Source of the DNA: an uncultured Phycisphaerales bacterium | GTDB taxonomy: Bacteria > Planctomycetota > Phycisphaerae > Tepidisphaerales > Tepidisphaeraceae | NCBI GenBank assembly: GCA_963758525.1 | Contig: CAVWVQ010000003.1 | Location: forward strand, 2,432,001-2,496,000 | Direction of reading: 5' to 3' | Length of the DNA stretch: 64,000 bases | The notes under the pieces: generated by a model | What the model was told of the DNA's origin: nothing | What the model saw: only the letters and a program-made list of their open reading frames with translations | Database searches by the model: none | Translations under genes and position numbers: made by a program | Shown: positions 2,476 through 53,131 of the stretch, piece after piece | Numbering within the stretch: position 1 is the stretch's first letter | Layout of the letters: each line of letters starts with the position of its first letter

Positions 2476-2500
2476 CGAAACTGCGGGATTTCGCGCAGAA

Positions 2501-2592
2501 ACCGAGGGTGCAAGCACCGCTCGGCGTTCACGTTTTAAATCGCCGCTGACTGACAGAGATCTCCGAACGCCGAGGGTGCTTGCACCCTCGGT
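2501..2592. repeat. REP-like inverted doublet, family A
   Basis: ACCGAGGGTGCAAGCACCGCTCGGCGTTC ... GAACGCCGAGGGTGCTTGCACCCTCGGT between convergent genes; second copy at 7087-7171. Confidence 0.85.
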
Positions 2593-2605
2593 ATCGCGCT
2601 CCCGT

Positions 2606-3037
2606 TCACGCACCCGCAGATGAACTCTGCAAATGGGCATGCGCCAGCCGAAGGATTTCGCGCGAGCTTGCGTAGGTGAGTCGCTTCATGGCGGGTTCGA
2701 AGGGCAGATACGCGAAACCAACGTGTTCGTCGCTCAGGCGGATAGTGCCCTGTCCCACTTCGGCGAGGAAAAAAACAACCGTCTTGTGAACCAACTGATG
2801 CTTGCGATCGCGAAAGTAGTAGTTAATTTCCTGGTGGAAGCCTGCCATCGGCGTAGGATTGGCTAGTGACGTCTCTTCCTGCAACTCGCGCACTGCCGCC
2901 GTCAGATCGTCTTCCCCTTTTTCCACGTGCCCCTTGGTGAAGTCCCAATGTCTTCCATAATCCAAGAGCAGATATTCCCAATCAGCCGCGCTGCGACGGA
3001 AGATCACGAATCCGGCCGAGCGCTGAATGCGGGACAT
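2606..3037 (-). CDS. NUDIX hydrolase, Ap4A hydrolase-like
   Basis: Nudix box KGHVEKGEDDLTAAVRELQEETSL, plus SAGFVIFR and LSDEH motifs. Confidence 0.85.
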   Translation of the reverse strand: MSRIQRSAGFVIFRRSAADWEYLLLDYGRHWDFTKGHVEKGEDDLTAAVRELQEETSLANPTPMAGFHQEINYYFRDRKHQLVHKTVVFFLAEVGQGTIRLSDEHVGFAYLPFEPAMKRLTYASSREILRLAHAHLQSSSAGA

Positions 3038-33280: not shown

Positions 33281-33871
33281 TTATTTCTTCGGCAAATTGC
33301 CGATGGTGCGCGTCTGCGGGTCGTAGTTGTCAATAAACAGCTTGATGTCGTTGATGGTATCGTCGCTGTGCCCAAAACTCAGAATTGCGTCCTTGGCCTT
33401 TGCTTTGTCGTATCCCATCACCGATTCCTGATACGCCGCGACAAACATCGCCGTCCGCCGAACCCCCTGCGCACAGTGCAGAAGCACTGGCTGACTCGAC
33501 GGGGTCTGGGCGATCTTGAGAAACGCCTGAATATCGTCGCTGGTCGGCCAGCCGCCAAGCTTCACCGCAATCCGCTGATACTGAACTCCTCTGCCCGCGA
33601 GATATGCCGGCTCCATCCCAAATTGAGGTTTCTTCGGATCTTTCAGCTCAGTGTCATCGATGAGGCTCACCACCGTGTTAGCCTTTACCTTTTCTACGGC
33701 AGCGCCCAACTCCTGAATCGAGCGGGCTCCGTCGCGATACAGCACGCCCGGCTGAACCGTCGCCAGGTGATAGGTGCTGATGTGAAGATGCACCGCTATC
33801 GCCAGGCCCGTTCCGACGATCAGAACACCAATTAACGCGACAAACCGCTTGCGCGTGTCTTTGCTGATCAC
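33281..33871 (-). CDS. Membrane-anchored tyrosine/dual-specificity phosphatase family protein
   Basis: N-terminal TM; PGVLYR; CX5R loop LLHCAQGVRRT. Confidence 0.85.
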   Translation of the reverse strand: MISKDTRKRFVALIGVLIVGTGLAIAVHLHISTYHLATVQPGVLYRDGARSIQELGAAVEKVKANTVVSLIDDTELKDPKKPQFGMEPAYLAGRGVQYQRIAVKLGGWPTSDDIQAFLKIAQTPSSQPVLLHCAQGVRRTAMFVAAYQESVMGYDKAKAKDAILSFGHSDDTINDIKLFIDNYDPQTRTIGNLPKK

Positions 33872-34468: not shown

Positions 34469-34804
34469 CTAATCGATTTCCACCAGCGGCTCTCCCCTTC
34501 GCAGAAGATCGAGCGCATCCGGAAAAGCTTTCACCAACCGTGCCTGCAACAACAACGTCGGCAGGTTTCCGATATTGAGCCAAAGTATCTGTGGTGGATG
34601 ACCTCGACGCTCCACCAGTTCTACGAAATCGTAATCCTTTGTCACGATGACGATTTGTCCAAAACGACTTCCGGCTTCAAAAAGGTCCAAATCTTCGGCG
34701 TTCCGAAGCCCAATTTCATCCAGTGACTTAGCAGCAACATCGAATTTCGTTGCAAGCCAGGAGGCCAGCGCGGGATCTAAATGTGCATCCAGCCAGAAGG
34801 TCAC
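34469..34804 (-). CDS. DUF5615 PIN-like toxin
   Basis: FWLDAHL, AEDLDLF, IVTKDYDF, GHPPQILWLNIGN; GTGA overlap with DUF433 gene. Confidence 0.85.
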   Translation of the reverse strand: MTFWLDAHLDPALASWLATKFDVAAKSLDEIGLRNAEDLDLFEAGSRFGQIVIVTKDYDFVELVERRGHPPQILWLNIGNLPTLLLQARLVKAFPDALDLLRRGEPLVEID

Positions 34805-35025
34805 ACAACTCCCAGCGTCGGATGAGAGACGCGCTTGGCGGCGAACTCCAGGCACGCACGCACATCTTCCACCTCGACGTACGGAAGCTGAACCGTGATC
34901 TCCTGCGGAGTCATGCCTTCAGCGAGCAATTCCAGCACATCCTGCACGCGAACACGCATCCCGCGAATACACGGCTTGCCGCCGCACTGCCTGGGGTTGA
35001 ACGTAATGCGTTCAAGGCGATTCAT
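34801..35025 (-). CDS. DUF433 antitoxin
   Basis: ITFNPRQCGGKPCIRGMRVRVQDVLELLAEG...DVRACLEFA. Confidence 0.92.
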   Translation of the reverse strand: MNRLERITFNPRQCGGKPCIRGMRVRVQDVLELLAEGMTPQEITVQLPYVEVEDVRACLEFAAKRVSHPTLGVV

Positions 35026-36599: not shown

Positions 36600-37787
36600 T
36601 TACGCCGCCGGGCGCTGCTGCGATGGACCTGACGTCCGAGCGGCGTCGGGAGTTGCGGGAGGCTCGTCTTCACGTAGCTGCCGGTGGATGTCCACGATGC
36701 GATCGAGGCTGCGAACCAGTGCGTTGACAACGTTCGGGTCGAACTGCGTGCCGGAGCCATCGACGATAATCTTCAGCGCCGCGTCGACTTCCATCGCCGC
36801 CTTGTAGGGTCGCTTGTTGGTCAGTGCGTCGAAGACGTCGGCAACAGAGACAATCCGGCCCGCGAGCGGAATCGCCTCGCCCGCAATGCCGTTGGGGTAG
36901 CCACGGCCGTCCCACCGCTCGTGGTGGGTTGTAATGATCGTTTGCACCAGGGCCAGGAGCGGTTGAGAACCCAGGGATGGTGACTCGACGGCGACTTCAT
37001 CGTGGGTTCGGACCGCCTGCCATTCTTCATCGGTGAGCGGCCGGGCGATCCGTGCGCCGGTCATGCAATGTCGCTGCATGAGCGCGAACTCCTCGCTCGT
37101 CAGCTTGCCGGGTTTGTTGAGGATGGCATCGGGCACCCCGATTTTGCCAACGTCGTGCAGTTGCGCGGCGAGCCCGATCAAACGGGCGTCGCTCTCGCTG
37201 CAGCCCACTTCGCGCGCCAGCACGCCGGCGTACCTGCCGACGCGAAGCACGTGCTGCCCGGTGGTGTCATCGCGTAGCTCGCCGGCTCGGGCCAGGCAAT
37301 AGATCACCTGCAGATTCGACGCCTCGAGTTCTGCCGTGCGAATTTGCACCTGGCGCTCGAGTTCCTGCGCGTAATGCGCCAGATGATCGTGGTGCGCCTT
37401 AACGATCAGGGCGTTGCGCAGTCGCGGGATGAGGTCATTGGGATCGACGGGTTTGGCGAGAAAGTCAGTGGCGCCTGCATCGAGGCATTTCAGCTTGGTC
37501 TGGGCATCGGTTGAGGCTGTGAGGATGAGTACCGGCAGGTGCCGCAGTTGGTGCGTTGCGCGGATGGACTGGAGAATCTGGATGCCATCGATCTTTGGCA
37601 TCATGACGTCCAATAAAACGACGTCGGGTGATTGCTCGGTGATCAAAGCGATCGCAGCCGTTGAATCCGTGGTTGAAACGAAGTCGCTGTAGCCAGCGCC
37701 CTGGAGATGCTTGCGAACGACCTTGATGTTGATCGATTCGTCATCGACGATCGCAATCCGGGCTGATTTGTGGTCGTTTGCAACCAT
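36600..37787 (-). CDS. REC plus HD-GYP response regulator (cyclic dinucleotide phosphodiesterase)
   Basis: IVDDE, LLDVMMP, FLAKP; LHDVGKIG, HHERWDGRGYP, DVFDAL..RPYK. Confidence 0.92.
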   Translation of the reverse strand: MVANDHKSARIAIVDDESINIKVVRKHLQGAGYSDFVSTTDSTAAIALITEQSPDVVLLDVMMPKIDGIQILQSIRATHQLRHLPVLILTASTDAQTKLKCLDAGATDFLAKPVDPNDLIPRLRNALIVKAHHDHLAHYAQELERQVQIRTAELEASNLQVIYCLARAGELRDDTTGQHVLRVGRYAGVLAREVGCSESDARLIGLAAQLHDVGKIGVPDAILNKPGKLTSEEFALMQRHCMTGARIARPLTDEEWQAVRTHDEVAVESPSLGSQPLLALVQTIITTHHERWDGRGYPNGIAGEAIPLAGRIVSVADVFDALTNKRPYKAAMEVDAALKIIVDGSGTQFDPNVVNALVRSLDRIVDIHRQLREDEPPATPDAARTSGPSQQRPAA

Positions 37788-37818
37788 CGTTAGACACCGA
37801 ATCAGCTGCCTGCAGGTG

Positions 37819-40362
37819 TCATTTGCTATCGGTCACTTGCTCGCGAGCCTTAAGGGTCGCGCCGGAAGGGGCGGTAATCCTGCCTGCCAGGCCCTGCAAA
37901 GCTGAGAGCGCTGCACCGATGTCATCAAGCTGCTTCTGCCGCGCCGCGTGCTCCAACTGCTTGGCGGGGCTGGTCAGCGCATCGAACCCAGCCGTTCCAC
38001 CGCACCCTTTCACCCAGTGCGCAAGGCGAGCGAGGTCTTCCAAATCACCCTTGGACCACGCCTCCTGAATGGCGCCGAGCTGCTCGCCAAGCCGCTCCAC
38101 GAACTCTTCGACAATCTCGCAGAAGTCCGGATCCTCAGTCGGCAGCGTGGAACAAATCCGGCTTTCGTCGGAAGTGATGCCGGATGTCATGGCGATATTG
38201 TGTTCGTCGCGTGACGGCAAACCCGCGGGCTTCTGTCCGACATATTCGCCGACCGTGCGGACCAGCAGATCCATGTCGATCGGCTTGGTGAGGAAGCCCG
38301 TGCAACCCGCGTTGCGGCATTTTTCCTCGTCGCCGCGCATCGCGTGGGCGGTGAGCGCGATGATAGGCGTTTGCAGCCCTTTGCTGCGCAGCAGCGTTGC
38401 AGCGGCATAGCCATCCATGACCGGCATCTGCATGTCCATCAGAATGACATCAAACGGCTCTGCCAAGGCCATGTCAGCGCCGATCTGCCCGTTCTCCGCC
38501 TGCAGGACGGTGACGCCGGCGCGTTGGAGCACCAGCGAAATCAACTTGCGATTGGAGACGCCGTCCTCGACGAGCAGCACCCGAGCCGGCGGCAGATGAA
38601 GCTCTGACCCGTCGGCGTGCCGGGCGCCCGCCAGCGACGCGCTGGCCTGGGCGGCGCTGAGCATCGGCACGTTGGCAAGCGGGCCGGTCCCGATGATGAC
38701 ACTGAAGGTGCTTCCCGTGCCATAGACGCTGGCAACCTGAATCGATCCGCCCAATGCCTCAGCGATCTGCTGGCTGATCGACAGACCCAGGCCCGTGCCG
38801 CCGAATCGGCGGGTGATGGACGTGTCCGCCTGCGCGAACGGCTGGAAGATGCGATTCAACACTTCCGGCTTCATGCCGATGCCGCTGTCGATCACATCGA
38901 GCTTGAGCTTGGGCGTCGTCGACGTTGCATCGAGAACCGACGCGACTACTCGGACCGCCCCCGTCTCGGTGAACTTGATCGCGTTGCCGATCAGGTTGGT
39001 CAACACTTGGCGCAGGCGGGTCGGATCGGTTTCGATCGACTCCGGGATCGGACCCTCCCAACTGGTTTCAAGTCCAATCCCTTTCTGACGCGCGCGCACG
39101 GAGAGCACGTTGGCAATCTCCGCGATCAGCTTGTGCGGCGCGCAGCGGCTCAGCTCGATCTCCAGCTTGCCGGCCTCGATCTTGGAAAGATCCAGCACGT
39201 CGTTGATCAGTTCCAGAAGATGCTGGCCGCTGGAATGGATCGTCTCAAGATATTCCTGCCGCTCCGTTTCGTTTTCCTCATATCCGCGGCGAAGCACCTC
39301 GGCGAATCCGAGGATGGCGTTCATCGGCGTGCGAATCTCGTGGCTCATGCGCGCCAGGAATTCGCTCTTGGCCCGGTTCGCGGATTCGGCCACGTCCTTC
39401 GATTTGCGCAGCTCGACTTCCTTCTGCTCCAGCACGGTGACGTCGTCGAAGCTGGCCAGAACTCCCCGGTATTCCCCTTCGCCACCCTGGATCGGGGAGC
39501 AGTTGACGGAAAACGTGTGCCAGTTCGATTGCGCATTGCGCAGCCGCATGATCGAGCCACGTTGCGTCGCGCCCTCGCTCATCGCCTTGCGCCAGGGCGC
39601 CGTCTGCGCCGCTGCGTCGCCGCCCTCCTGCCAGGGGAGCGACGAAACCGGCGTTGCCAGCAGCTCGCTGGCAGGCTTTCCCAGCAGATCCGCGAAAGCC
39701 TGGTTGGCGAGCACGATGCGCTCCTCGTTGTCGATGACGAGCAGGCCTTCCGCAAGTGTGTCGAGCGCCGTTCGCACGCGGGGCGGGACCGCCTTGGATG
39801 GATCCAGGTGCTGCAGCATTTTCCGCAGATAGAACATGAAGGCCATCATGGACAGGGACAACACGAAGAGAATCAGCCGGATAGGCGGCGAGCTGATCAG
39901 GCCCCAGATCCCGGAGCCTTGGATGGCGCGGAAATGCATCTCGACAACGCCCCACCGCTTCTCGTCCGCCCAGATGGGAACGTCGATGTTCTGATAGATT
40001 GCCAGCGCCCCGGCAGTACGCGCCGGCGTCCCGATCGCGGTGACCACGCGACCGTCAGCCTTGCGAATCGTGGCAGACGCAATGTCGGGATCGCGCTCGA
40101 CCATGGCGCGGAACGTCAGCGGCAACTGCTCTTCCGCGCCGCGGGCAACGTCCAGCGAGCAATGAACGGCGATCACTTCGCACAATTTGCCGCGACCGTC
40201 CATGATGGCCTGGGTCTCATTGGGAATGATCCCAAGCGACAGCGCGCCCAGCAGGATGCCGCCCAGCAGAAGGATTTGTCCAAGAACGATTCGGGCGCGT
40301 GCCGGCACTCGACCGGCCAGCGTCCGGAGCCATTCCAGGGGTGTCACGGTTTTGGAGCTCAT
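37819..40362 (-). CDS. Membrane hybrid sensor kinase (2 TM, PAS, HisKA, HATPase, REC, Hpt)
   Basis: MSHEIRTPMN, NLIGNAIKFT, DSGIG, GGTGLGL, LMDMQMP, LAHWVKGCGG. Confidence 0.93.
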   Translation of the reverse strand: MSSKTVTPLEWLRTLAGRVPARARIVLGQILLLGGILLGALSLGIIPNETQAIMDGRGKLCEVIAVHCSLDVARGAEEQLPLTFRAMVERDPDIASATIRKADGRVVTAIGTPARTAGALAIYQNIDVPIWADEKRWGVVEMHFRAIQGSGIWGLISSPPIRLILFVLSLSMMAFMFYLRKMLQHLDPSKAVPPRVRTALDTLAEGLLVIDNEERIVLANQAFADLLGKPASELLATPVSSLPWQEGGDAAAQTAPWRKAMSEGATQRGSIMRLRNAQSNWHTFSVNCSPIQGGEGEYRGVLASFDDVTVLEQKEVELRKSKDVAESANRAKSEFLARMSHEIRTPMNAILGFAEVLRRGYEENETERQEYLETIHSSGQHLLELINDVLDLSKIEAGKLEIELSRCAPHKLIAEIANVLSVRARQKGIGLETSWEGPIPESIETDPTRLRQVLTNLIGNAIKFTETGAVRVVASVLDATSTTPKLKLDVIDSGIGMKPEVLNRIFQPFAQADTSITRRFGGTGLGLSISQQIAEALGGSIQVASVYGTGSTFSVIIGTGPLANVPMLSAAQASASLAGARHADGSELHLPPARVLLVEDGVSNRKLISLVLQRAGVTVLQAENGQIGADMALAEPFDVILMDMQMPVMDGYAAATLLRSKGLQTPIIALTAHAMRGDEEKCRNAGCTGFLTKPIDMDLLVRTVGEYVGQKPAGLPSRDEHNIAMTSGITSDESRICSTLPTEDPDFCEIVEEFVERLGEQLGAIQEAWSKGDLEDLARLAHWVKGCGGTAGFDALTSPAKQLEHAARQKQLDDIGAALSALQGLAGRITAPSGATLKAREQVTDSK

Positions 40363-40381
40363 GGGAATTCCTGTCGAACGA

Positions 40382-43300
40382 TCATGATTTTTTCCTGTTG
40401 CCGTTGACGAGGCCTTCGAGTCCTTCATCGTCATTGTTCCGGTGCCGGCCCGAACCGATCGATTCGAGAATGGGCAGCGGATCGACGAAGTTCCAGGCCG
40501 GCATGGAGGAGAGCAGACTGCTCAGCAAAGAGCCGGCGCGGAAAATCCAGACGAAGTAGGCCAGCGACATTCCGATGGACATAAACGACGCGGTTCCCGC
40601 CCAGACTTTGACCTCCGAGTGCATGTTCTGCTTCATCGCGTCCAGGTCGACCCAGAGCTTGCTGTTGTTGGCCAGGAGCTTGCGCGTGCTGGCGAACTCG
40701 GCGCGCATCGATTCCCGATGGAGCAAATTCACCGCCGAGTCGTCCCGCGCCGGCGTGGGCGGAACGACGGGGGGCGCCGCTGCCGCTCGCTGCGCAGCGT
40801 TGGCCGCGGCTCTCGGAACCGGGCGGGCCGCCGGCGCGGCGGCGGGGGTCGCGCCCGGCGTCTTGCTCGCAGGCGGCGAAACGTCGGTGGAATCCGGGGC
40901 CGGAGCAGACTTGCCATCGTCTCCAGTAGCTGAAGTGGAATCCGAATCGTTCGTCGTGGTCTTTGCGACAATCGAATCGGACAGCTTCGAATTTTGATTG
41001 GGAGCAGACGCCGGCGCAACAGTTGGAACCACGGGAGGCGCAGGCGAGGGCGCGGGGGCAATCGGAACGGCCTGACGTTTCAGCTGGAACGCAACGGCGC
41101 CGGTCGTCCGCCCCACCGCATCCTGGGCCTCGAACTGGAACGTGTCGGGGAAAGGCACGCCGCCGGCTGGCGCGTAGCTGACGGCGCCGCTGTCGAGGTC
41201 ATCGCGCGTGAAGGAGCCGTTCACGCTCAGCGGAGTCCCATCGAGCAGCAATGTTCCATGCTGGGGCAGCGAGAGAATGACGTAAGAAACGCCCTCGGCC
41301 GCGCCCGTGGGCTCGGCGACGTAGAGGGAGTCTGTTGTGATCGGAGCGGGTCCCTGGTTGGGGAGATCCAAAGATGACCGGCGAACCAGCAGCGGCGCGG
41401 GGATGACGGTGACCGCCGCCTGCACCGGGCTGCCGCCAAGGCCCGAGTCCGATGGTGACACCGACGCCTGAATGGTAAACGCACCAGGCGCAACCGAGCC
41501 GGCAGTTGGTGTGAAGCGGAGACCCGCCAGGCCCTGCGCGAAGGTGATAAAATCGCCGTCGCCGATCGGCGTGACCCCATTCTGCTGCACGAGAGAGCCG
41601 CCGGCAATGTTGGTGATCTTGAAGTACCCTGCCAATGAACCATCCGCCACATCCGGCGTGATCACCAGGCCGGTGCTGGTGCGATGACCTTCCAGCACCT
41701 GCGTGTCCGTGACGCTCGGAGTATGCGCAATCGGCGTGACGTCCACCGCGATCGTCATCGTCGCGGACTGCGGCCCCGGAACGCCGGTGTTCCCCAGATC
41801 GTTGAGCGTGACGGCGAGCGTCGCCGGCCCCGAGTAATGCAGGGCGGGCGTGAAGATCAGGCCATCCAGCGCGGCGTCGAGAGAGCTCAGCGTCCCAGTC
41901 AATGTGATGGCAGATGCCGGGCTGTTCGACGACGAGGAGGTTGCCAGCGTGCCGTCGGTCGCCGACAGCGTGAGTTGTTCCGGATGGTTCTCCGAATCAA
42001 CGTCGGCAAGGGTGATGCCGTCGCCACCGGCCGGTGAGAGTCCGAGCGGCACATCCTCGACTGTGGACTGCGCCGGCGGGCCGGAGATCGCGGGGGCGTC
42101 GTTTACGGCAACGACATCGATTGGGCGGTCGACCGGGTCGCTCGAAATAAACACATCAACGACGCTGAACTCGGCGCTCCTCGCCGCGACGGAAGGGTCG
42201 TGGCTGGAGTTTGCATACGCCACCGACTGCAGCGCTGACTGGTAGGTGGTCGCCGACGCAGCTCCGCTGAGCGTCAGCACTCCGTTGGCCGCGTCCCACG
42301 AACCGGCGATTCCGTTCTGATCCGTGAACTGCAGCGTATCCTCAGACGGAACGAATCCGATGACACGTACCGTCGCACCCGTGAGCGGCGCCGCGTTCTG
42401 GTCCGTGATGGTCAGGCCCGGAGAGATCTCGGCAGCGCCCTGACCTTCTGTGTACGCCAGCGCGCCCGAATCAACTGCGAGCGTCTGCTTGCGGGCGACC
42501 GACACGGTCGCCGTCACCACGCTTCCGCCGAGCCCCGAATCGTCGGAAGTTGTCGACGCCTGCACTTGAAAGCTGCCGGTTGGCGCGCTGCCGGCAACTG
42601 GAGTGAATTTCAGCCCGGCTTCTCCCTCCGCGAAGGGGATGAAATCTCCGCCAGCCACTGCGCTTCCATCTGAGAGGGCGAGGCTTCCGCCGGTGATTCC
42701 GGTGATTTTGAAATAGCCGGCGAGCGACGCATCCAGTGCATTTGGAGTGATCGCCAGCCCGCTTGTTGTTTGCGCGGTTTCGATCGTTTGCGCCGGCGAC
42801 ACGGATGGCTGATGGGCGATGCGGTCCACGGTGATCGACACGCTGTCCGTGTCAGAGAGCGCGCCGCTGGGTCCCACGTTAGCCGGATCGGCGGTAACGA
42901 TCTGAAGCGAAGCGGCGCCCGCATAGTGCAATGCCGGCGTGAAGATCAGTCCATTGAGCGCGGCCCGCAGTTTGGCAAGCGTGCCGGTGAACGACACGGA
43001 GGAATCGCCGATTCCCGTGCCGCTGGTGAGCGTAACCCCGGAACCGGCGGCAAGTGTGACGGCGCCGTTCGAGGCGGACAGCGTGACCAGGTCGGTTCCG
43101 GAGCCGATCGATCCGTCGTTGACGGAGATTAAGCGTGTGGATGAGAAGATCAGTGGCGCGTCCTCGGCAATCGTCTGCGCGACGGGCACTTGATTCACCG
43201 GAGGGCCGGCCACGGTGATCGAAGCCGTTGCGAGCGAGCCGCCAAGTCCTGCGGGATTGTTCGCGGTGGACGCCTGAACGTGGAACGTGCCAGTTGCGAG

Positions 43301-46300
43301 GGAGCCGTTTGTCGGCATGAAGCGAAGTCCCGCGGAGCCCTGGGCGGCGGTGACAAAGTCGCCGTTGAGGATCGCGTTTCCGTTTTGATCGAAGAGCGTT
43401 CCGCCCGTAATGCCGGTGATTTGAAAGTAGCTTACCACCGGTCCGTCGATCGCATTGCGGGCAATCACCAGCCCGCTGGACGTCTCCTGGTTGATGACCG
43501 TCTTCGCATTCGTGATTGATGGCGTATGAGCGACCGCTGTGATCGCTAATGCAATTGTCGCATTGGCGCTATTGACCCCTTCGCTCACGGAAGCGGCGAG
43601 GCTGGCGCTGCCCACATAGTGCGTCGCCGGCACAAACTGCAGGCCGTTCATCGCGTTGTTCAGGCTTGTCAATGTTCCGGTGAACGTCAGGGAAGCCGCG
43701 CCGGACGCCGTGCCGCTGGTAAAGGAGATTCCGGAGACGCTTGCGAGCGTGAGTGTCCCATTTGTCGCCGTCAGAGTGACAGAGGCGTTACCGTTCGCGT
43801 TGCCAGGATCGCTCACGCTGATCGCGTCGGAGTTTCCGGCGGAGAAGACCAGCGGCGCATCTTCCGCGGTCGTTCCTGTGGCAGGCGCGGCGAGCGAGGG
43901 AACGGGTCGTATTGTTATCGTTGCAGCGACGATCGATCCGCCGAGCCCCGAAGCGCTGTTCGATGTCGAGGCTTGGACGCTGAACAAGCCTGCTGCCGTC
44001 GAGTTGGTTGCGGGATTGAAAAGCAATCCTGCTTCGCCGGCGGCGAAGGTGATGAATTGGCCGTCGCTGATCAGATTTCCATTGCTGTCGGAAAGTGAAC
44101 CGCCGGCGATCCCGGTGATCTGGAAATATCCCGGTATCGACGTATCGAGCGAATTGGGGGTGATGACCAGACCGCTGGTGCTTTGGACATTTTCATTCGT
44201 GCTGGCGGTGGTGACCGACGGCGTGTGAGCGGCCTGATCGACAGTGATTGCGACCGACCCGTTCACGGCGTTGGAGCCTTCGCTCACTGAGATTGCCAGG
44301 CTTGCCGACCCGGAATAGTGCGTGCCCGGCACAAACTGCAGGCCGCTCAGAGCAGCATTGAGATGGGCGAACGTACCGCTGAAAGCGTCACTGCTGCTGC
44401 CGCTGAAACTGCCGCTGCTGAAGGTCAGACCAGTTGCACTTGCCAATATCAGCGTGCCATTGCTGGCGGTCAGCGTTACGGAAGCGGTCCCGCCGCTGTT
44501 GCCGGGATCGCTGACCGAGATTGCGTTTCCGTGGGCGGCGGAAAATACCAGCGAGGTATCCTCGTTGGCGGTCGCGTTGGTGGGCGAAACGAGAAGGGGC
44601 ACCGGCTTTACGACGATGCTGTCAGCCACGACCGAACCCCCAAGGCCAGACGCACTGTTGGATGTCGACGCCTGAATATCGAACATGCCGGCGACGGTCG
44701 AGTTGGTTGTGGGATTGAAAACCAATCCTGCTTCGCCGCTGGCGAAGGTGATGAACTGGCCGTTGCTGATCGGATTTCCATTATTGTCCGACAGTGACCC
44801 GCCGGTGATGCCGGTGATCTGGAAGTACCCCGACAGTGAAGAATTCAGTGCATTGGGAGTGATGACAAGACCGCTCGTGGTCGGCGTGTTTTCGTTGGTG
44901 GCAGCGGGGCTTGCCGTTGGAGTGTAGGCAACCTGGGCGACGGCGGGCGTTGCGTATAGCTGGAAGAAGACTCCATTGTTGTCGCCGGCTCCCTGCCCAT
45001 CCCAGGCGACCACCGCATGCGCGTCATACCAGGCGATCGCTGCATCCTGCTGATTGCCCTGGGTTGTGGTATTGACGAGAAATTGGCCGCCGTTGGCAGA
45101 CCCGTCCGCCTTGAACGCCTGTCCGAAGACGCCATTGCCGTTCCCATCGAGATTATTTCCGGCAGTCCACGCAACCAGATAGCTGCCGTCAGCGCGCACG
45201 GCAATCGCCGGCTTGGTCTCCATGGCGGCGCCGGGGTCGCTCAACTGCACCGGCGAGGCGTCCAGGGCGGTGCCGGCCGCATTGTACCGGCGCGTATAGA
45301 TGCCCTGACCAGGGCCACTCTCGGACCAGGCGACCACAAAGTTTCCCGAATCGTCGATGCCCACCGCGGAAAGATCTTGGTTATTGCCTCCGCTGGCGCC
45401 GACCAGGATTTCTGCCGATGGCGAGCCGGAGGCGGGAAGCAGAGCCGCCTTGATCGTCTGTGCAGGGTTCTTGTCCGTCCAAGTCACCACGCTGCCGCCC
45501 TGCGGGTCGGTTGCGATCGCGGGATTGGTCTGCGGTCCAGTGACGGTCGCGTTCATCAGAACGGCGCCGCCGTTGGCCGCTCCGGCGGCGGTGAAACGCT
45601 GCGCGTAAATTCCGTCGTTGTCGCCGGCCCGGTTTCCCTCATAAACAATGGTAAATGAACCGTCGGCTGCCATGGCGACAGCGGAGGGTGTATTGCCCTG
45701 TCTCGCGGAGCTGACCAGCGTATCACCGGTCAGCGCGGTTCCCGCCGCGTTAAACACCTTGGCGTAGACGCTATTCCCGTTACCGTTCCACGAGACAACG
45801 AACTGGCCCGATGTGTTCATCGCCACCGACGGCGCGGGGGAGCCGCCGGCCTGCAACGTGTTTACCTGAAATTGGCTTCCGACGGCAGTGCCGGACGCGT
45901 TGTACAGTTGGGCGTTCACTTCGCCGCCCGCGGCGCCATCCTCCCAGACCACGATAAAGTTGCCGGAATCATCCATCGCCACCGCAGGCAACTGCTGGTT
46001 GCCCCCGGTGGAGGCGGTGTTGACCAGTGTCTCGCCGCCCAAAGGCGTGCTGACCGGCCCGGCCGCCCCGATCGTGAAAGGCCTGCTGCCCGACAGCGGT
46101 CCGGCAGTTGCCGTCACGGTGCCGGTGCCGGTCGTAGAGGGGGCCAGGTAGAGACCCGAATTGCTCAGCGTGCCCGGCCCAGTCAGTGAATAATTAATCC
46201 CCGGCTGAGGCGACACCGCATCGCCGAACTGGTCTTGCACCGTTCCAGTGAACTGCTGCAGATCATTTGCCGGCACCGTGGCATTGGCTGGCGCGACAAC

Positions 46301-48176
46301 CACTAATGTCGCGGTTTGATGGACCATCACGTTCACGGAACTTGTGGTTGACAGTCCGCCTGCGTCGGTGACGGTCACCTGAAAAACGTAGGAGCCGGCT
46401 TTGCTGAACGTTGCCGTGGCGTTTTTCGAGGCATTGGTTCCGTTGCTGCTGAAATTGACTGCCGCCGGCGGTGTACCCGTAGTGCTCCAGGTGTAGGTAA
46501 GATTGGATGCGCCCCCATCGTCGGCCCCGAGAACGCTTAATGCCGTGGCGGTGCCGTTGACATTGTTCGGCGCCGCTGCCGCGGGCGTGGCCACCGTTGG
46601 AGGCGCGTTGACCGTGATCGTCACCGTTGCCGCGCTCGAAGTCAGAACGCCGTCAGTGGCCTTATAGGTAAATGAGTCTGTTCCGGTGTATCCGGAAGTG
46701 GGGGTATATGTGAACCCTCCCTGCTTGGCCGGGTCCCATACAAGCGTGCCGTGCGCGGGATTGGTCTGCAGAATTGCGGTTAGCGGAGAGTTGAGAAAGT
46801 CGGTGTCATTCGATAACACTCCGGGAGCTGCGACCGTAAGTGTCTGATTTTTATTGACGGCATATTGGTCATTCGTCGCGGCGGGCGGGAGTAACAACAA
46901 CGTGTCCGCCCAGTTTCGCTGAACGGCACGGCTCATGGCGATGGGCGTTTGAATTCGGCCAGTGGCATATTCCAGATTCCAGTTTCCGCCCAGGGCTTTC
47001 TGCCCTGTCAGGTCAGTGCTGGCGGCCACGGCCGCGCCGCTCAGATTCGCAATTGCGTCGACAAACGCCTTTCCACTGCTTCCCTCGGCAACATCGCAGC
47101 CGTAGAGCAGCAGGTCGGCTCCTGAGGCAAGCGATTGACGCCATGCATTGATCGACGCGGCATAGGTGTCCAGGTCGCCGGCGCTGAGCAGCACGCTTCC
47201 AAGTTGCAGCTCCCCCGCATTGCCGTGCGTGATGAGGTGAATCGCCGTGATCCCAGTGCGCCCGGCGAGCGTGTCGGTGATTTGCGCGACGCCGTCGCGC
47301 GTCGGGTCTAGCAGCACGATTTGATCGCCGGGCGCGGCCTGCCGGACACCGGCGAGCAGCGTTTTCCAATGCGGGACAGAGGTATCCACAAAGACAATCG
47401 CTGTATTGCGATGAACAGTGGCAATATTCGGTTGAGCCCCCCTGCCGTGCGTGGCTAGCGTGTGCTTTTGGCCTGAAGTGCTGTCGACCTTCAGGGCTCC
47501 AGCGGGTGTCGGCTCTGGCGGCGCGCTGTCCGGCAGGCTTCCCGCCAGGTAGCGCTGGCTGAAAATTTCCTGTATGCCGGCCGGTCCTTTGCCGTGCCAT
47601 GAGACGGCGAAATCACCGGCCGAATCGATGGTGACGGCAGACCGTCGCGCCTCGCCCGTCTTGCTGCCCGACACGACGTATTCGTTGCCCGCAGGCTCGC
47701 CGGAGCTGTCGTATTCGCGAGCGCAAATCGCGCCGCCGTTTTCGCTGCTGGTCCAACTGACCACAAAGCTGCCCGACGCGTTCATCGCCACGGCAGGCTG
47801 TGCCTGATGTGCGGCGGCAGTCTGATTGATACGAAACTCGGAGCCGACCTGCGCGCACCGCTGTGTCAAATCGTTGGCCGTAAATGCCCGGCCCCTGCCC
47901 GTCCTGCCCGTTATCAGACCAGACGGCGACGTAGTTGCCCGATCGGTCGATTGCGATCACGGGGTTCAGCTCGGCGTAGGTCTTATTGGTATTGACGACC
48001 TTCTCGGTGCCCGTCAGCGAGAAGCTGAACATCATCCGCGATTCGAGCCGCTCAACCTCGGCTAGTTGCCGAAAGATGCAATTGAAGCGCAGGCTGCTTC
48101 CGATGGCGGCAGCGCATGCCAGCGAACGACGACAGAGCGAGCGCAACTGTTTCAAACCGATGGCTTGAGCAGACAT
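40382..48176 (-). CDS. Giant surface protein (~2,600 aa): LEPRxLL-like motif, DUF4347, Ig/cadherin-like repeats, C-terminal TM (frameshift near 47860)
   Basis: ERLESRMMFS; DUF4347 (IHLITHG...LLLYGCDVA...GGNWNLE); Ig-like TDSFTYKATDG; five GYF(Q/K)IT(G/N)I(T/A)GG repeats; Pro/Ala linker; TM followed by SSMPAWNFVDPLPIL. Confidence 0.85.
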
Positions 48177-48443
48177 CCTTGGATTCCCGAGGTGGAAAAA
48201 TCCGCGTTCGAATGCGCGTAGCATTCCAAGGATTGCTTATCGGCGTCGCTTGAATTTTGATGGACAGTTCAACGCCCCAGAAGGGGATGGTGTGGTTATC
48301 GGGCCTGCTCACCAGCGGACGAATTGCAAGGCCGCGCACTGGCTAAACCGCCAGCCCTGAGGCCCCTGCTTGCTTTCTTATCGGTATCATCGACAAGGCG
48401 TTCGGCAACCGAAGTTCCGCGAATCCTTAGACGCGCAGAGCTG

Positions 48444-48517: not shown

Positions 48518-49201
48518 CTATCGTGGAAGCGTGTCCGACGCGGCGCCCGACAACAGGTTCGCCAGTCGCGCATCAAGCAATGTTGGCTGAGTTGCGGGGT
48601 CCTGCTTGCGCAGTGCTACGGCCATCGTGTCTCGGTCTGCCGAAACTCTGCCCGACAGCTCCCCTTCCGCCCGGCTCCGCTTTTCATTCGCTTCAGCCAG
48701 CTCTTGTTGCAAATGATCGCGCTCGGTTTTCAGTTGCCCGGCGGCGTCCGACACGCCTTTCACCTGCTCGTCCGCGTGCCGCAGCTCCACCTGCGAGCGC
48801 GTGATCGTGGTTGCGGTCCACCCCACCGCTACCAGCAATGCCACAGCCATGGCACCCACCGTGCACCAGGCGATCAGCGAGCCGCGCCGGGCCGTGCGTG
48901 TCTCTTCCCACGCGCGGTCGGCATCGATGCGCGCCAGCCGGGCATCCTCCTGCGCGGTCTTCACTATGGCGGAAGTGGCCCCCAATGCGAACTGCACCTG
49001 GTTCTCCGCCTGCCCGGCCACGACGGACAGCGCATCGGCGCCAGGAGCCGCGATGTCGGCAACGTCAATCAACACTTCCAACTGCCCGGCGGCGGTCCGA
49101 CGGCTCTGTAATTTGCCGCTCTTCATCTGCCGTTCCACCGTGCGGGGATGCACTTTGAGCGCGGCGGCAGCTTCGGCGAATGTCACCCATTTATCCGGCA
49201 T
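48518..49201 (-). CDS. HTH (excisionase/MerR-like) plus TM plus coiled-coil protein
   Basis: WVTFAEAAAALKVHPRTVERQMKSGKL; TM LIAWCTVGAMAVALLVAVGW; heptad-rich C-terminus; GGAGG RBS. Confidence 0.75.
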   Translation of the reverse strand: MPDKWVTFAEAAAALKVHPRTVERQMKSGKLQSRRTAAGQLEVLIDVADIAAPGADALSVVAGQAENQVQFALGATSAIVKTAQEDARLARIDADRAWEETRTARRGSLIAWCTVGAMAVALLVAVGWTATTITRSQVELRHADEQVKGVSDAAGQLKTERDHLQQELAEANEKRSRAEGELSGRVSADRDTMAVALRKQDPATQPTLLDARLANLLSGAASDTLPR

Positions 49202-49390
49202 AGGTCCTCCATGACCTCTCAAGAATGTGTGCGAAAGTGAACAGGCCTACTGTCTGCACCAACAGTGACCGCGCTGACATCCCTGTCAGCGAGTCACCTT
49301 TTTAGCCTCTGGGCGGCATCACTTCAAGGTCTGGCTGCGGAAAGCCAGCACAATTGCAGGACAATTGCATCGGTACTTTTGGAACGCAGT

Positions 49391-50085: not shown

Positions 50086-51075
50086 ATGTCGAAGATATTG
50101 AAGCCACGGCTCGGCAGGGGGCTTAACAGCTTGATTTCCGTGGCCGATTTCCCAATTCACCGCGAAATACCGGCTGAATCCGACATAGCCGAGTTCGAAG
50201 TCGGCTCCGGCGGCCACAACGCATCAAACCCGCCCATGCCCACGTCGGATTCCCCGCCCGCACCCCAACTGCCGCCACCAACACAGGGTGTCGCAGAGTT
50301 GGCGATCGACGCAATCGTACCCAATCCGCACCAGCCGCGCCGACAGATGAATGATACTTCGCTGGCTGAGCTTGCCGCTAGTTTGAAGGGTACCGGCTTA
50401 ATCCAGCCGATTATTGTGCGCCAAGTGGGGGAACGCTACGAGCTTATTGCCGGTGAACGACGGTGGCGCGCGGCACAGCTCGCTGGATTCACGCACATCC
50501 CAGTGATCATCAAGGATGTGGATGCCTTTGCCCAGGCACAGATGGCGCTGGTAGAGAATATTCAGCGCGAGAATCTCAATCCCATCGATCGTGCGCAGGC
50601 CTATCGCATGTTGATGGCCCAGCTTGGTCTCACCCAAGCCGAGCTCGCCCAGCGGATGGGAGAGGATCGCAGCAGTATTGCCAATTATCTGAGATTACTG
50701 GACTTATCGGATGCCGTGCAGAAGTCCGTCATTGACGGGCGTCTGTCGCTTGGGCATGCCAAGCTCCTGGCAAGCGTGCCCGACATTCTGGAGCAGCAGC
50801 GTCTTGCACAACTCGCTTTGTCGCAGGAATTGTCCGTACGCAATTTGGAACGTCTGATTCAAGGACAAAAGCAGCAGCCGTCGACGACGCCAGTAAGCTC
50901 TGGTGGGTCTGCTCATCTAATGGATCTGGAAAAGAACCTGTCGCGGCAATTGGGGATCCGTGTGCAAATTCGTTCTGCCGGGCGCAGCAAGACGAAAGGC
51001 CGGCTGATCTGTCATTTCGCCAACCTCGATCAGTTTGACGAATTGATGGGACGGCTTGGTCTCTCTGCGGAATAG
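50086..51075 (+). CDS. parB: Chromosome partitioning protein ParB/Spo0J
   Basis: LGRGLNSLI, PNPHQPR, LIAGERRWRAA, ENIQRENLNPI, HTH RSSIANYLRLL. Confidence 0.95.
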   Translation: MSKILKPRLGRGLNSLISVADFPIHREIPAESDIAEFEVGSGGHNASNPPMPTSDSPPAPQLPPPTQGVAELAIDAIVPNPHQPRRQMNDTSLAELAASLKGTGLIQPIIVRQVGERYELIAGERRWRAAQLAGFTHIPVIIKDVDAFAQAQMALVENIQRENLNPIDRAQAYRMLMAQLGLTQAELAQRMGEDRSSIANYLRLLDLSDAVQKSVIDGRLSLGHAKLLASVPDILEQQRLAQLALSQELSVRNLERLIQGQKQQPSTTPVSSGGSAHLMDLEKNLSRQLGIRVQIRSAGRSKTKGRLICHFANLDQFDELMGRLGLSAE

Positions 51076-51202
51076 CAGGTTAACTTTGGACGGCAAGCCG
51101 ACTTTCACGTCCCGCATCTTGCCCGGCAGAAATCTTCGTTTATCCTTTGCAGTACGCGTATTGTCCCACAAATGTCCGGCACTTGCCGGGTGGCCTTTGC
51201 AC

Positions 51203-53064
51203 ATGAAAAACTCACCAGAGCTCGCCGACTTGATCTTCAACACGATTGATAGTGTGGTGGTCATCGTCGACGGCGCTGGCGCGGTCGTGCGGATGAACCC
51301 GTGCGCCGAGCATGTCACCGGTTATCGTACTTGTGAGGTAATGGGCAAGCCCTATTGGTCCGTCTTTGTCGCCGCCGATGAGCAGGCGGCGGGGGAGAAG
51401 CGATTCGCCATGCTGCTTTCAGGCGAATGGCCGTTGAACTACGAGTGTGAATGGACAAGTCGCGATGGAACCCGCCGGCAGATCCGCTGGTCGATCGGCA
51501 TTCTGCGCGATGCGGGCGGAAGAGTCGAAACTGTCGTCGGCACCGGAACCGACATTACCTACAGCCGCCGCGCCGAGAGCGCCCTGCGCGATCAGACACG
51601 CATGCTGCGGTCGGTGCTCGACAGTGTTGGCGATGGTGTCGCGGTCGTCGATCAGGAAGGGGAGTTCCTTGTTTATACCGCTGAGCTGGAGCGGATCGTC
51701 GGACGGCCCCAGCCGATGGCTTCGCGCGAGGAATGGCCGAGGTATTTCGGATTCTTCCTCCCGGACGGGGTGACCTCGTTCCCCGCGGCAAACTTGCCGA
51801 TGTCGCGCGCGATGAAAGGGGAGGACTCCAATGAAGTGGAGATTTTGATTCGCCGTCCCGATTGGCCGGAGCCGCGATGGTGCAGCGTGAACGGGCGGCC
51901 GCTGCGCGACGAGTCCGGACGGGTGCGCGGCGGGGTCATCGCATCAAGGGACATCACCGACCGCAAGCGCACCGAAGGAGAGATCCGCTTTCGCAAGAGC
52001 TTGCTGGAATCGCAGATGGAGGCGTCAATCGACGGCGTCCTGGTCGTCGACGAGAGCGGCAAGATTTTGCTATCCAACAGCCGATTCGCGAAAATCATGG
52101 GGGTTCCCGACGACGTCGTGCGAAAGGGGATTGACGAAGACGCAATTGCGGCCACGCTCCAGCAGGTTCAGGATCCCGATGAATTCATGGCCCGCATCAG
52201 ATGGCTCTACCAGCACTCCGACGAGCAGAGCCGCGACGAAATCCGTCTGAAGGACGGGCGCGTCATCGATCGTTTCAGCACGCCGGTGCGGACGCCCGAG
52301 CGGGAGGGAAGCCCGATGGTGCATTACGGGCGACTGTGGATCTTCCGCGACATCACCGACCTGAAAAACGCCGAGGCCGCCGCCCGCCAGAGCGCGCAGG
52401 TCGCCTACCGCAACGAGGTGCATTTTCGCCAGCTTGCCGAGCACACGCGCCGCCTGGCTCGGGAAATCGATCACCGCGTCGGGAATAATCTGGCGGCGCT
52501 GCTCGGACTGGTCTCGGTCACGCGCACGCGCGTGGCCAGCGTCGATGCTTTCGCCGACGCGATTCAGAACCGATTGCTCGCCATGGCGAAGGTCCATCAG
52601 TTGCTCCGGGAAGGGAACTGGAAACGCGTTGCTCTCGCGGAGCTGATCTCATCCGTTCATTCGACGATCGTGCAGCCGCATGCGCGGGTGCGCTTTATCG
52701 CATCAGGTCCAGAAGTGTGGATCGAGCCACGGCAGGTTTCTCCGCTGACGATGGTGCTTGTCGAGTTGCTGACCAACAGCGCAAAGCACGGTGTCTACGG
52801 CGCATCGGGGGGGAACTGGCGCTCTGCTGGCAGGCCGTGCCTTGCGACCCGGGAAGCAAATCCGCATGCGTCGTGCGCATCTCCTGGATCGAGCGCGGCG
52901 GGCCGCAAATCGCCGGGCCGATCGTTCCGTCGCTCGGCACAGAACTGGTCGAGGGCTTCATCACCCGCGAGCTGCTGGGCAGATGCGAACTGCGGTACCC
53001 GCCCGAAGGGGCGGATCATCTCATCGAGTTTCCGCTGCCCGACACCGACCCGGCGAGCGAGTAG
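51203..53064 (+). CDS. Soluble 3-PAS sensor histidine kinase, HWE/HisKA_2 type (frameshift at G7 run 52807-52813)
   Basis: PAS ends TDIT/RDIT/RDIT; EIDHRVGNNLA; ELLTNSAKHG; second frame WIERGGP...SLGTELV. Confidence 0.85.
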
Positions 53065-53084
53065 GGGGGGCGGCTGGAAATGGC

Positions 53085-53131
53085 GAATGACGAAACCAGA
53101 AACCAGACTCAAGCCCGAATGACGAATGACC
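53085..53131 (+). repeat. Heptamer tandem motifs GAATGAC and GAAACCA
   Basis: gaatgacgaaaccagaaaccagactcaagcccgaatgacgaatgacc. Confidence 0.6.

Follow-up and report, generated by a model that had tools for sequence, protein, structure and literature searches.

A conserved pair of unnamed domains, one in giant repeat proteins and one in membrane sensors, as a candidate receptor circuit linked to c-di-GMP enzymes

Organization of the locus

The window analyzed here is a 64,000-nucleotide stretch of contig CAVWVQ010000003.1 (assembly GCA_963758525.1, genome G000) from an uncultured Phycisphaerales bacterium. Three co-oriented genes on its minus strand encode, in order, a giant repeat protein, a hybrid histidine kinase and a REC-HD-GYP response regulator. 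The intergenic gaps measured 19 nt (giant gene to kinase) and 31 nt (kinase to regulator), in agreement with the approximately 20 and 30 bp given in the original prediction. The features, with the basis of each assignment, are as follows.

47871..48224, minus strand: 5' piece of the giant gene, beginning at 48224 or 48176 and offset by one base from the main ORF
48024..48053, minus strand: LEPR-XLL-like leader motif ERLESRMMFS (sequence reading)
40382..47869, minus strand: main ORF of the giant protein, 2,495 aa, with DUF4347, Big_9/cadherin-like, PKD and further Ig-like repeats
46898..47398, minus strand: DUF4347 domain (Pfam E 1e-55)
40748..41074, minus strand: Pro/Ala/Ser/Thr-rich low-complexity stalk, 109 aa core (composition)
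40385..40684, minus strand: unnamed conserved C-terminal segment of the giant protein (alignments of homologues)
39754..40308, minus strand: unnamed membrane sensor domain (alignments and structure model)
37819..40362, minus strand: hybrid histidine kinase, sensor-PAS-HisKA-HATPase-REC-Hpt, 847 aa (Pfam and motifs)
36600..37787, minus strand: REC-HD-GYP response regulator, 395 aa, predicted c-di-GMP phosphodiesterase (Pfam and motifs)

A promoter and terminator scan of the locus returned no sigma-70-like site and terminator counts close to chance. An HTH_17 membrane protein encoded upstream (48518-49222) was considered as part of the module and rejected, as it had no homologue among the loci searched. 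The exact triad of giant protein, kinase and REC-HD-GYP regulator recurs in G665, a genome of the same family.

The giant repeat protein

As assembled, the giant gene is read in two frames, with the 5' piece offset by one base from the 2,495-aa ORF (47869-40382). One contig of run X2 (151 nt, depth 2), otherwise identical, lacks one base at the frameshift site, and in G665 a similar giant-protein N-terminus lies inside a single open frame; for these reasons the frameshift is probably an assembly error. Read-through would give a protein of 2,597-2,613 aa, which matches the single protein of about 2,600 aa proposed originally, although the gene as assembled is frameshifted.

The leader is basic and a hydrophobic signal peptide is absent, with no hydrophobic window in the 5' piece. 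While the ERLESRMMFS motif of the window scored below the NF012209 (LEPR-XLL) threshold, this model matched 5 of the 7 homologous giant proteins scanned, and the strict LEPR-XLL motif was present in 24/31 complete giant ORFs. A similar LEPR-XLL-type leader motif was found in 72 ORFs of this genome. Pfam analysis of the giant protein identified DUF4347, Big_9, PKD and cadherin-like domains, and RTX nonamers (GGxGxDxL), as in classical RTX cargo of type I secretion, were not found in the 2,495-aa ORF. The DUF4347 domain (PF14252) scored 188 bits against a cut-off of 24.6 and contains a protease-like pair, His215 and Cys258 (residues counted in the 2,495-aa ORF), of which the His was kept in 36/37 and the Cys in 37/37 aligned domains. 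These residues are predicted to be a cysteine-protease-like dyad of the CPD-like kind, and the likely role of the domain in the giant protein is self-processing.

With respect to the C-terminus, the stalk (109 aa; 21% Pro, 26% Ala) and a short tail (27 aa) were found as predicted, while the accompanying TM helix proved just moderately hydrophobic. By a generous measure, homologues had a median of 226 order-poor residues upstream of the segment (range 40-355, n=54). The segment itself comprises approximately 95 aa, with an amphipathic helix followed by a small-residue-rich hydrophobic helix bearing SxGYxxWxxRxG, then LLSSxLSSLPAW, DPLP and an acidic tail. Its best 19-residue Kyte-Doolittle mean was 1.41, compared with a median of 1.585 in homologues (n=54), 26/54 of which reached at least 1.6. 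Such moderate hydrophobicity weakens the case for membrane retention of the segment. The structure model was helical but of low confidence (pTM 0.31), and no Pfam family was matched in more than 2/65 members at E<=0.1. In segment alignment A3, the search pattern itself selected the invariant columns S[ML]PAW...DPLP, which were therefore excluded as evidence of conservation.

The kinase, its sensor domain and the regulator

The kinase is 847 aa from an ATG after AGGA, or 871 aa if started at 40434. Pfam assigned PAS-HisKA-HATPase-REC-Hpt with no HAMP match, and His341, REC Asp643 and Hpt His782 are intact. In the regulator, matched by REC and HD_5, the intact residues are Asp60, HD at 211-212 and HHERWDGRGYP at 288. 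The domain orders of both proteins and the intact motifs described in the original prediction were thus borne out.

The sensor at the kinase N-terminus consists of a TM helix, an extracytoplasmic PAS-like/sCache fold, a second TM helix and a conserved LDPS..P.RV linker, and it contains an invariant Trp. The structure model (pLDDT 91) matched WalK (Z 10.8), a PhoR-type PAS domain (Z 10.3) and the LapD periplasmic output domain, which was tied with WalK (Z 9.9, rmsd 4.8 over 113 residues) and was ranked first by Foldseek (E 2.7e-3). Among Atlas look-alikes two unnamed clusters came first, followed by GAPES4, sCache_4, CHASE and LapD-type clusters. At the sequence level, no Pfam family was matched in more than 5/65 sensor members at E<=0.1, LapD_MoxY_N was not among the 25 families listed of 27 for these 65 members, and a search of solved structures with the sensor alignment gave nothing significant. 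A metagenome scan for close sensor relatives produced 297 pattern matches, with 0 confirmed. From the model we are confident that the sensor has an extracytoplasmic PAS-like fold, of the kind by which LapD binds a protein partner.

Pairing of segment and sensor across genomes

Linkage was analyzed for 83 segments in 80 flanked loci from several phyla; many of the sampled genomes are incomplete MAGs, and kin are non-independent. The linkage of giant gene and kinase withstood this comparison, as the sensor gene lay directly downstream of 66/83 segments, with 2-156 nt between the stop codon and the beginning of the sensor domain. Of the other 17 segments, 2 had no downstream DNA and 15 had no adjoining sensor. 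Three of these 15 were extra giant genes inside a sensor-holding cluster, and in the genomes of the other 12 a sensor was present elsewhere (12/12). In the phylum of the window the segment was found in 4/251 genomes and the sensor in 5/251, namely the same 4 and G023, where it lies near a contig end. Two segments and two sensors were present in G137, and in G200 segment and sensor are 5.5 Mb apart. In the class of G256, all 20 segment-positive genomes (of 401) had the sensor, adjacent within 300 nt in 18/20, and the sensor was found in 21/400 genomes, these being the same 20 and one marginal match (E 8e-6). Short or broken segment-bearing ORFs preceded some sensors (L057/L141, L144-L147), and others had no preceding segment ORF (e.g. 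L138, L140, L142, L151).

Carriers span Planctomycetota, beta- and gamma-proteobacteria, Nitrospira and deltaproteobacteria. The sample includes the cultured and non-pathogenic carriers Aquincola tertiaricarbonis, Denitromonas halophila and Amphritea atlantica. No natural segment-sensor fusion was found in the loci or among the 145 representatives listed from the best 150 of 5,369 matches, and in those representatives the tails after the segment motif were at most 82 aa. Profile-profile comparison found segment and sensor to be unrelated. Inter-protein covariation (mutual information, 65 pairs) gave a top z of 5.25 against a mean of 5.41 for the maxima of 30 shuffles, a comparison of low power because 65 pairs are too few sequences. 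The tree distances of segment and sensor were correlated (r 0.78), as would be expected from co-inheritance alone. No description of the pair was found in the literature searched, which covered few subscription journals and no supplements.

The outputs of the 66 linked sensors were a kinase in 55 and a GGDEF-containing protein with the active-site motif kept in 9, with 1 split and 1 cut off. Of the kinases with room downstream, 36/46 were followed within 2.5 kb by a gene of the GGDEF/EAL type and 10/46 had no c-di-GMP enzyme within that distance. The gene after the kinase was usually REC-GGDEF/EAL in this cross-phylum sample and REC-HD-GYP in none (0/46), which rules out HD-GYP as the conserved output. 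The c-di-GMP breakdown by HD-GYP originally proposed is therefore a local variant, recurring with the triad in G665. Judged by these sequence comparisons, the conserved unit is segment plus sensor, two unnamed domains, rather than adhesin plus HD-GYP, and the two very probably constitute a dedicated, genetically locked pair. As they are nearly always found together across several phyla, they likely form a receptor circuit.

The direction of signaling was considered in light of the sensor fold. In a Lap-like, inside-out arrangement the periplasmic domain of the sensor would be an output, holding or releasing the giant protein according to c-di-GMP or phosphorylation state. The leading LapD fold match and the LapD_MoxY_N clusters among the Atlas look-alikes are consistent with such control, which we nevertheless regard as very unlikely. 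WalK and PhoR-type input domains match the sensor equally well, the kinases or GGDEF domains on the cytoplasmic side are, by motif, catalytically intact and not degenerate receptors, and LapG (PF06035) had 0 matches in this genome (91% complete), with a positive control in Caulobacter. Because the membrane protein is, unlike LapD, an active kinase or GGDEF enzyme, signal flow is predicted to run outside-in.

Association with an ABC-less export cassette

While no secretion genes adjoin the locus, as had been noted originally, the same contig carries, at a distance of approximately 620 kb, a cluster of HlyD, GAF-like-HlyD, M50 and SecA_DEAD genes (G000:C3, ~3.092-3.101 Mb), where GAF was matched by tblastn alone and M50-HlyD is split in the assembly. 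In the 80 loci, HlyD was present in 19, M50-HlyD in 17, GAF-HlyD in 14 and SecA_DEAD in 5. M50-HlyD was found in 16/20 segment-positive genomes compared with 36/381 others, and in 5/5 further segment-positive genomes; the 4/20 without a match are draft genomes. From this linkage and co-occurrence, the giant protein is a candidate cargo of the ABC-less HlyD/M50/SecA_DEAD exporter. Contrary to the original proposal, the circuit is not self-contained, since the giant proteins have an LEPR-XLL-type leader, lack a classical signal peptide and co-occur with the exporter. The proposed path from giant protein through neighboring sensor to c-di-GMP has strong comparative support, whereas self-containment and c-di-GMP breakdown by HD-GYP do not hold.

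Only 16 of the 52 M50-HlyD-positive genomes carried the segment. The 36/52 without it rule out the segment as a general export signal, and as it tracks the sensor rather than the exporter, the segment is not simply an export tag. These counts also bear on a reading without contact between the two domains, in which the segment would do no more than anchor the protein or give a second signal for export, with the sensor binding a small molecule and linkage serving co-regulation. In favor of it, Cache/PAS-like folds commonly bind small ligands, many fold matches of the sensor are ligand-binding domains, a covariation signal was absent, and the exporter is a common third factor. We consider this reading unlikely, as segment and sensor co-occur even when their genes are apart, the sensor lacked the segment in one marginal case in 400 while 36 genomes have the exporter without either, and the two domains persist through the exchange of all their fusion partners.

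Alternatively, the sensor may bind the segment and read the amount of giant protein in the inner membrane, or its cleavage by M50, as an inventory or export checkpoint with no outside contact. HExxH and NxxPxxxxDG were intact in 9/9 M50-HlyD proteins recovered by motif search. Site-2 protease substrates tend to have destabilized helices, which the Gly/Ser/Ala-rich segment with its central Arg-x-Gly resembles. Sensors with no adjoining giant gene often lie beside the exporter (G200, G553, G023, G256:C129, G616:C67), and the short segment-bearing ORFs before some sensors also fit. However, the outputs are c-di-GMP enzymes with no transcription factors, which suits a lifestyle switch more than expression feedback, and the 36/52 M50-HlyD-positive genomes without a segment indicate that the protease has other work. 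On balance we consider a checkpoint rather unlikely, and it and the outside-in explanation can both be partly true.

Proposed mechanism

Our main reading, to which we assign a probability of roughly 0.5, is that segment-sensor binding and a phosphorelay would carry the state of a predicted surface adhesin outside-in to a c-di-GMP enzyme. Across phyla, segment and sensor occur together whether their genes adjoin or not, and upstream repeats and downstream outputs are exchanged around them. The ABC-less HlyD/M50/SecA_DEAD(/TolC) system would export the giant protein N-terminus first via the LEPR-XLL-type leader, and export would stall at the hydrophobic segment, leaving it in the inner membrane with the unfolded stalk spanning the envelope. 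There the segment and the kinase's sensor likely bind each other. If the outer part were pulled or lost, the segment would contact the sensor TM helices and periplasmic PAS-like domain differently, and the giant protein could be shed or reset when cut by its own DUF4347 or by M50. Transfer from His341 to Asp643, His782 and Asp60, for which His-Asp-His-Asp two-component chemistry is established, would then switch the HD-GYP phosphodiesterase, or elsewhere mostly a GGDEF/EAL enzyme. We infer both the surface or contact sensing by the giant protein and the segment-sensor binding from sequence.

How touching a surface changes c-di-GMP in bacteria is a long-standing question, mostly studied with flagella and pili, and this module represents a different and directly testable candidate route. 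With such a circuit, the c-di-GMP switch between the free and the attached lifestyle would receive information on the state of a surface adhesin. Two unnamed domains are kept together across phyla while inputs and outputs swap, and the segment alone was found in 3,862 clusters (E<=1e-10). More tentatively, they may represent a widespread and undescribed trans-envelope receptor class, in which a giant adhesin, threaded through an ABC-less exporter, would be held in the inner membrane by the segment, and the segment in turn would be recognized as ligand by a dedicated PAS-like receptor. Pulling or proteolytic shedding (by DUF4347 or the intramembrane protease M50) would then switch plug-in kinase or GGDEF/EAL/HD-GYP outputs. 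If true, this logic would parallel that of Notch and adhesion GPCRs in bacteria.

Comparison with known systems

RpfC/RpfG is a phosphorelay from a hybrid kinase to a REC-HD-GYP regulator, and the locus resembles BarA/RpfC-like and RpfG/NosR-like systems in its HisKA-HATPase-REC-Hpt to REC-HD-GYP order with intact motifs. However, the named NCBIfam equivalogs all score far below cut-off (the best match of the regulator, NosR-family, is also below it), the input domain belongs to a family without a name, and a giant protein serves as partner. In PilS-PilA, a kinase senses its partner membrane protein intramembrane; here, too, a kinase is predicted to sense a membrane segment of a surface-structure protein. 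Unlike PilS-PilA, the partner is a single-chain repeat protein of 1,200-3,000+ aa and the output is c-di-GMP turnover, not transcription.

LapD-type receptors have a degenerate GGDEF-EAL behind a HAMP domain. In the module, as in LapA/LapD/LapG of Pseudomonas fluorescens (PMC4359373), a giant surface protein built of repeats is connected with c-di-GMP via a protein of the inner membrane, whose PAS-like periplasmic domain resembles that of LapD in fold (as it does WalK), and release may depend on cysteine-protease-type activity. In contrast to LapD, the membrane protein here is a kinase or GGDEF enzyme with intact motifs and PAS but no HAMP match. Further differences from the Lap system are that no LapG was found, the putative protease sitting within the giant protein; that RTX nonamers are absent and the exporter has no ABC subunit; and that the conservation lies in a hydrophobic segment at the C-terminus.

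The Pseudomonas aeruginosa effector Tce1 (PDB 9qpe), described in PMC13323088 as a putative cysteine protease with a proposed cysteine-protease fold, has the same Pfam-named domain and His/Cys pair. The direct sequence match of its DUF4347 chain to that of the window is weak (E 1.4), DUF4347 here is internal and N-proximal in a giant repeat protein, and nothing connects this locus to injection. The module supplies a testable function for DUF4347.

The secondary SecA_DEAD / Peptidase_M50-HlyD / GAF-HlyD / HlyD locus was described by Kamneva, Poudel and Ward 2015 (PMC4452313), and the same genes recur beside giant genes and are present in this genome. The passages of that paper on the cassette name no cargo, and its main text contains none of 'kinase', 'GGDEF', 'cadherin' or 'adhes', although figures or supplements may show such neighbors. 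The segment/sensor pair accompanies the cassette as an add-on in just a minority of the genomes that have the exporter (16/52), and the module offers a candidate cargo and signaling role for an export cassette known since 2015 from genome comparison only.

Organization of the three-gene locus

Three genes lie head to tail on the minus strand, with gaps of 19 nt (giant gene to kinase) and 31 nt (kinase to regulator), which bears out the co-oriented row with short spacing of the original prediction:

3' end at 40382, minus strand: giant repeat gene, first of the three
40362-37819, minus strand: hybrid kinase, 847 aa, with the same ATG start in public gene call P0038
37787-36600, minus strand: REC-HD-GYP regulator, third of the three

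Pfam analysis assigned DUF4347, Big_9/cadherin-like and PKD domains to the giant protein, a PAS-HisKA-HATPase-REC-Hpt architecture to the kinase, and REC and HD_5 to the regulator. Every phosphorelay and HD-GYP motif was intact by sequence, as had been anticipated. The giant gene is broken near 47,860, where a shift of one base separates the 5' piece from the frame of a 2,495-aa ORF; the expected length of ~2,600 aa was therefore recovered on reading through the break (2,597-2,613 aa), but not in the gene as assembled. This break is probably an assembly error, since one 151-nt contig of sequencing run X2 has one base fewer at this point and is otherwise identical, and G665, a genome of the same family, has a similar N-terminus within a single open frame. 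The M50-HlyD gene is also split in the source assembly (G000). A hydrophobic stretch was present at the C-terminal position of the proposed transmembrane (TM) helix, but it was weak by hydropathy (1.41).

With respect to DUF4347, the His was conserved in 36 and the Cys in all 37 of 37 aligned copies. In the available part of PMC13323088, a DUF4347 protein whose structure has been solved is considered a putative cysteine protease; together with the conserved residues, this suggests a self-processing domain. The available part of PMC13723633 gives DUF4347 only as a matrix-protein domain.

Several neighboring genes were recorded. The giant gene is preceded, at a distance of ~300 nt, by a single-copy gene in the same orientation (48518-49222, minus) whose product joins an HTH_17 (BldC-like) DNA-binding domain to a hydrophobic helix and a coiled coil; no homologue was found in the loci searched. 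Divergent from the locus, a ParB gene precedes one for a multi-PAS HWE-type kinase (50086-53122, plus). nuoD and nuoE are separated by a DUF433/DUF5615 (PIN-like) toxin-antitoxin-type pair (34469-35025, minus), nuoE and nuoF by a dual-specificity-phosphatase-like gene (33281-33871).

Linkage of the segment and the sensor

Two stretches, each present once in G000, lack a family name: the C-terminal ~95 aa of the giant protein (the segment) and, in the kinase, the N-terminal ~185 aa (the sensor). A motif scan of species-representative genomes returned at least 121 stretches; 80 loci with flanks, from beta- and gammaproteobacteria, Nitrospira, deltaproteobacteria, planctomycetes and one Polyangiales by record title, were counted and 41 short ones left out. 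These 80 loci contained 83 segments, 66 of which were followed by a sensor domain 2-156 nt past the segment stop, so that the giant-gene/sensor-gene part of the predicted neighborhood is conserved. A further two had no downstream DNA. Among the 15 segments without a directly following sensor, three were extra giant genes inside a sensor-bearing cluster, and the other 12 had a sensor elsewhere in the genome (12/12).

Two genome samples were picked independently of the motif. Within the phylum (251 genomes, G000 included) the segment occurred in four genomes and the sensor in those four plus G023, where it sits 329 nt from the contig start; G137 had two of each, and in G200 the two lie 5.5 Mb apart. 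In the class of G256, read as Gammaproteobacteria because G256 is a Pseudomonadales MAG, the segment was found in 20 of 401 genomes, every one of which also had the sensor; the sensor gave one further, marginal match (E 8e-6; one of the 401 unscored). The two were adjacent in 18 of the 20. Among near relatives of G000 the distribution was patchy (0/2 same-genus and 3/12 same-family genomes, a tally that takes in the unpublished genome G666, which enters no other result here). The segment family comprised 3,862 clusters at 50% identity (E<=1e-10), and the segment was near the C-terminus in all 145 listed proteins checked. Segment and sensor are very probably a dedicated pair, and they form a real, widespread and apparently unpublished module; no account of it was found in the literature searched.

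Short (82-242 aa) or broken segment-bearing ORFs preceded the sensor in several Nitrospira and other genomes (L143-L147, L141/L057) with an intact giant gene elsewhere; such an ORF may be a decayed remnant of a giant gene that relocated, or may act on its own as a small ligand. A Thiotrichales contig (L062:2518-11342) carried two complete modules facing each other, one with a kinase and REC-GGDEF-EAL and the other with a fused GGDEF-EAL, and could serve as a natural test of how specific the pairing is.

Outputs and structure of the sensor

The 66 linked sensors, whose attached domains were called by phmmer with single reference domains, comprised 55 kinases, nine GGDEF proteins (GGDEF alone, with HD-GYP or with EAL), one split and one cut off, and a PAS domain followed the sensor in all 65 of sufficient length. 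Downstream sequence of at least 1,300 nt was available for 46 kinases; a GGDEF/EAL-type gene lay within 2.5 kb in 36 of them and was absent in 10, and REC-HD-GYP was the next gene in none. Judged from this gene content, the constant output is predicted to be c-di-GMP turnover and not HD-GYP breakdown. The exact triad first described (giant gene, kinase and REC-HD-GYP) recurs in G665, and in G668 the architecture was sensor-PAS-GGDEF. The outer part of the giant protein also varies, with no DUF4347 match in that of G665. Nitrospira/Nitrosospira sensors of ~650 aa (L012, L040, L068, L075, L143-L146) had a divergent kinase module scoring weakly against the kinase of the window, possibly CheA-like or another subtype; two of the loci continue with a further kinase and a GGDEF gene.

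The sensor was modelled confidently (pLDDT 91) as a TM helix, a PAS-like/sCache domain and a TM helix, its best matches being the extracytoplasmic domains of WalK (Z 10.8) and of PhoR type (Z 10.3) and the LapD output domain (Z 9.9). The modelled fold is a common one and by itself indicates no function. Modelled alone, the segment formed one long, low-confidence helix, with its firmest part around YxxWxxRxG.

Export

No classical signal peptide was present in the giant proteins, which instead had a basic leader; among the 31 complete ORFs of at least 1,200 aa, 24 carried a LEPR-XLL-type motif in it, and NF012209 matched 5/7 scanned. Recurrent neighbors across the 80 loci were HlyD (19 loci), M50-HlyD (17), GAF-HlyD (14) and SecA_DEAD (5), the cassette of Kamneva et al. 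2015 (PMC4452313), whose main text, in its available part, mentions neither kinases nor GGDEF; its supplements may show such neighbors. M50-HlyD occurred in 16/20 segment-positive genomes versus 36/381 others, and M50 domains found by motif search had HExxH and NxxPxxxxDG in 9/9. The segment tracks the sensor much more tightly than the exporter. Because this cassette recurs and co-occurs, and in G000 sits ~620 kb from the locus (with several TolC-family genes also in the genome), the locus is not the self-contained circuit first proposed.

G000 had 72 ORFs with an LExRxLL(S)-type leader motif, but only one HlyD/M50/SecA_DEAD cassette and only one segment-bearing protein were found, giving many possible cargoes for one exporter. 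Two genomes showed other gene orders: in G553 (L170, G553:C31) the exporter comes before the sensor, which is followed by a giant frame of 7,543 aa; in G200 (L169, G200:C4) the sensor was divergent from a full exporter and the segment-bearing frame was 11,600 aa.

Proposed mechanism and comparison with known systems

Beyond the observed anatomy, linkage, co-occurrence and output swapping, we propose that the giant protein would be exported N-terminus first, with the segment retained in the inner membrane and an unfolded stalk spanning the envelope; the segment would bind the sensor, and pull or shedding would switch it. We give such outside-in reading of the surface state of the giant protein a probability of about 0.5. 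Counted against it were the lack of any segment-sensor covariation signal, the modest hydrophobicity of the segment, and sensors with no adjacent segment or only short or broken ones. The main rival, that the sensor acts as an inventory or cleavage checkpoint, appears rather unlikely.

In its proposed working, the outside-in module most resembles a reversed Lap system, as far as the available part of PMC4359373 describes it. Unlike in that system, no LapG was found in G000, the receptor is a kinase with intact motifs and not a degenerate one, and the 2,495-aa ORF of the giant protein has no RTX repeats. Omnitrophota giant proteins, in the available part of bioRxiv 2023.11.21.568195, have fused SecA domains, a different arrangement. 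The module would belong with partner-read membrane sensors, and there is a fair chance that it represents a new class of adhesin receptor.
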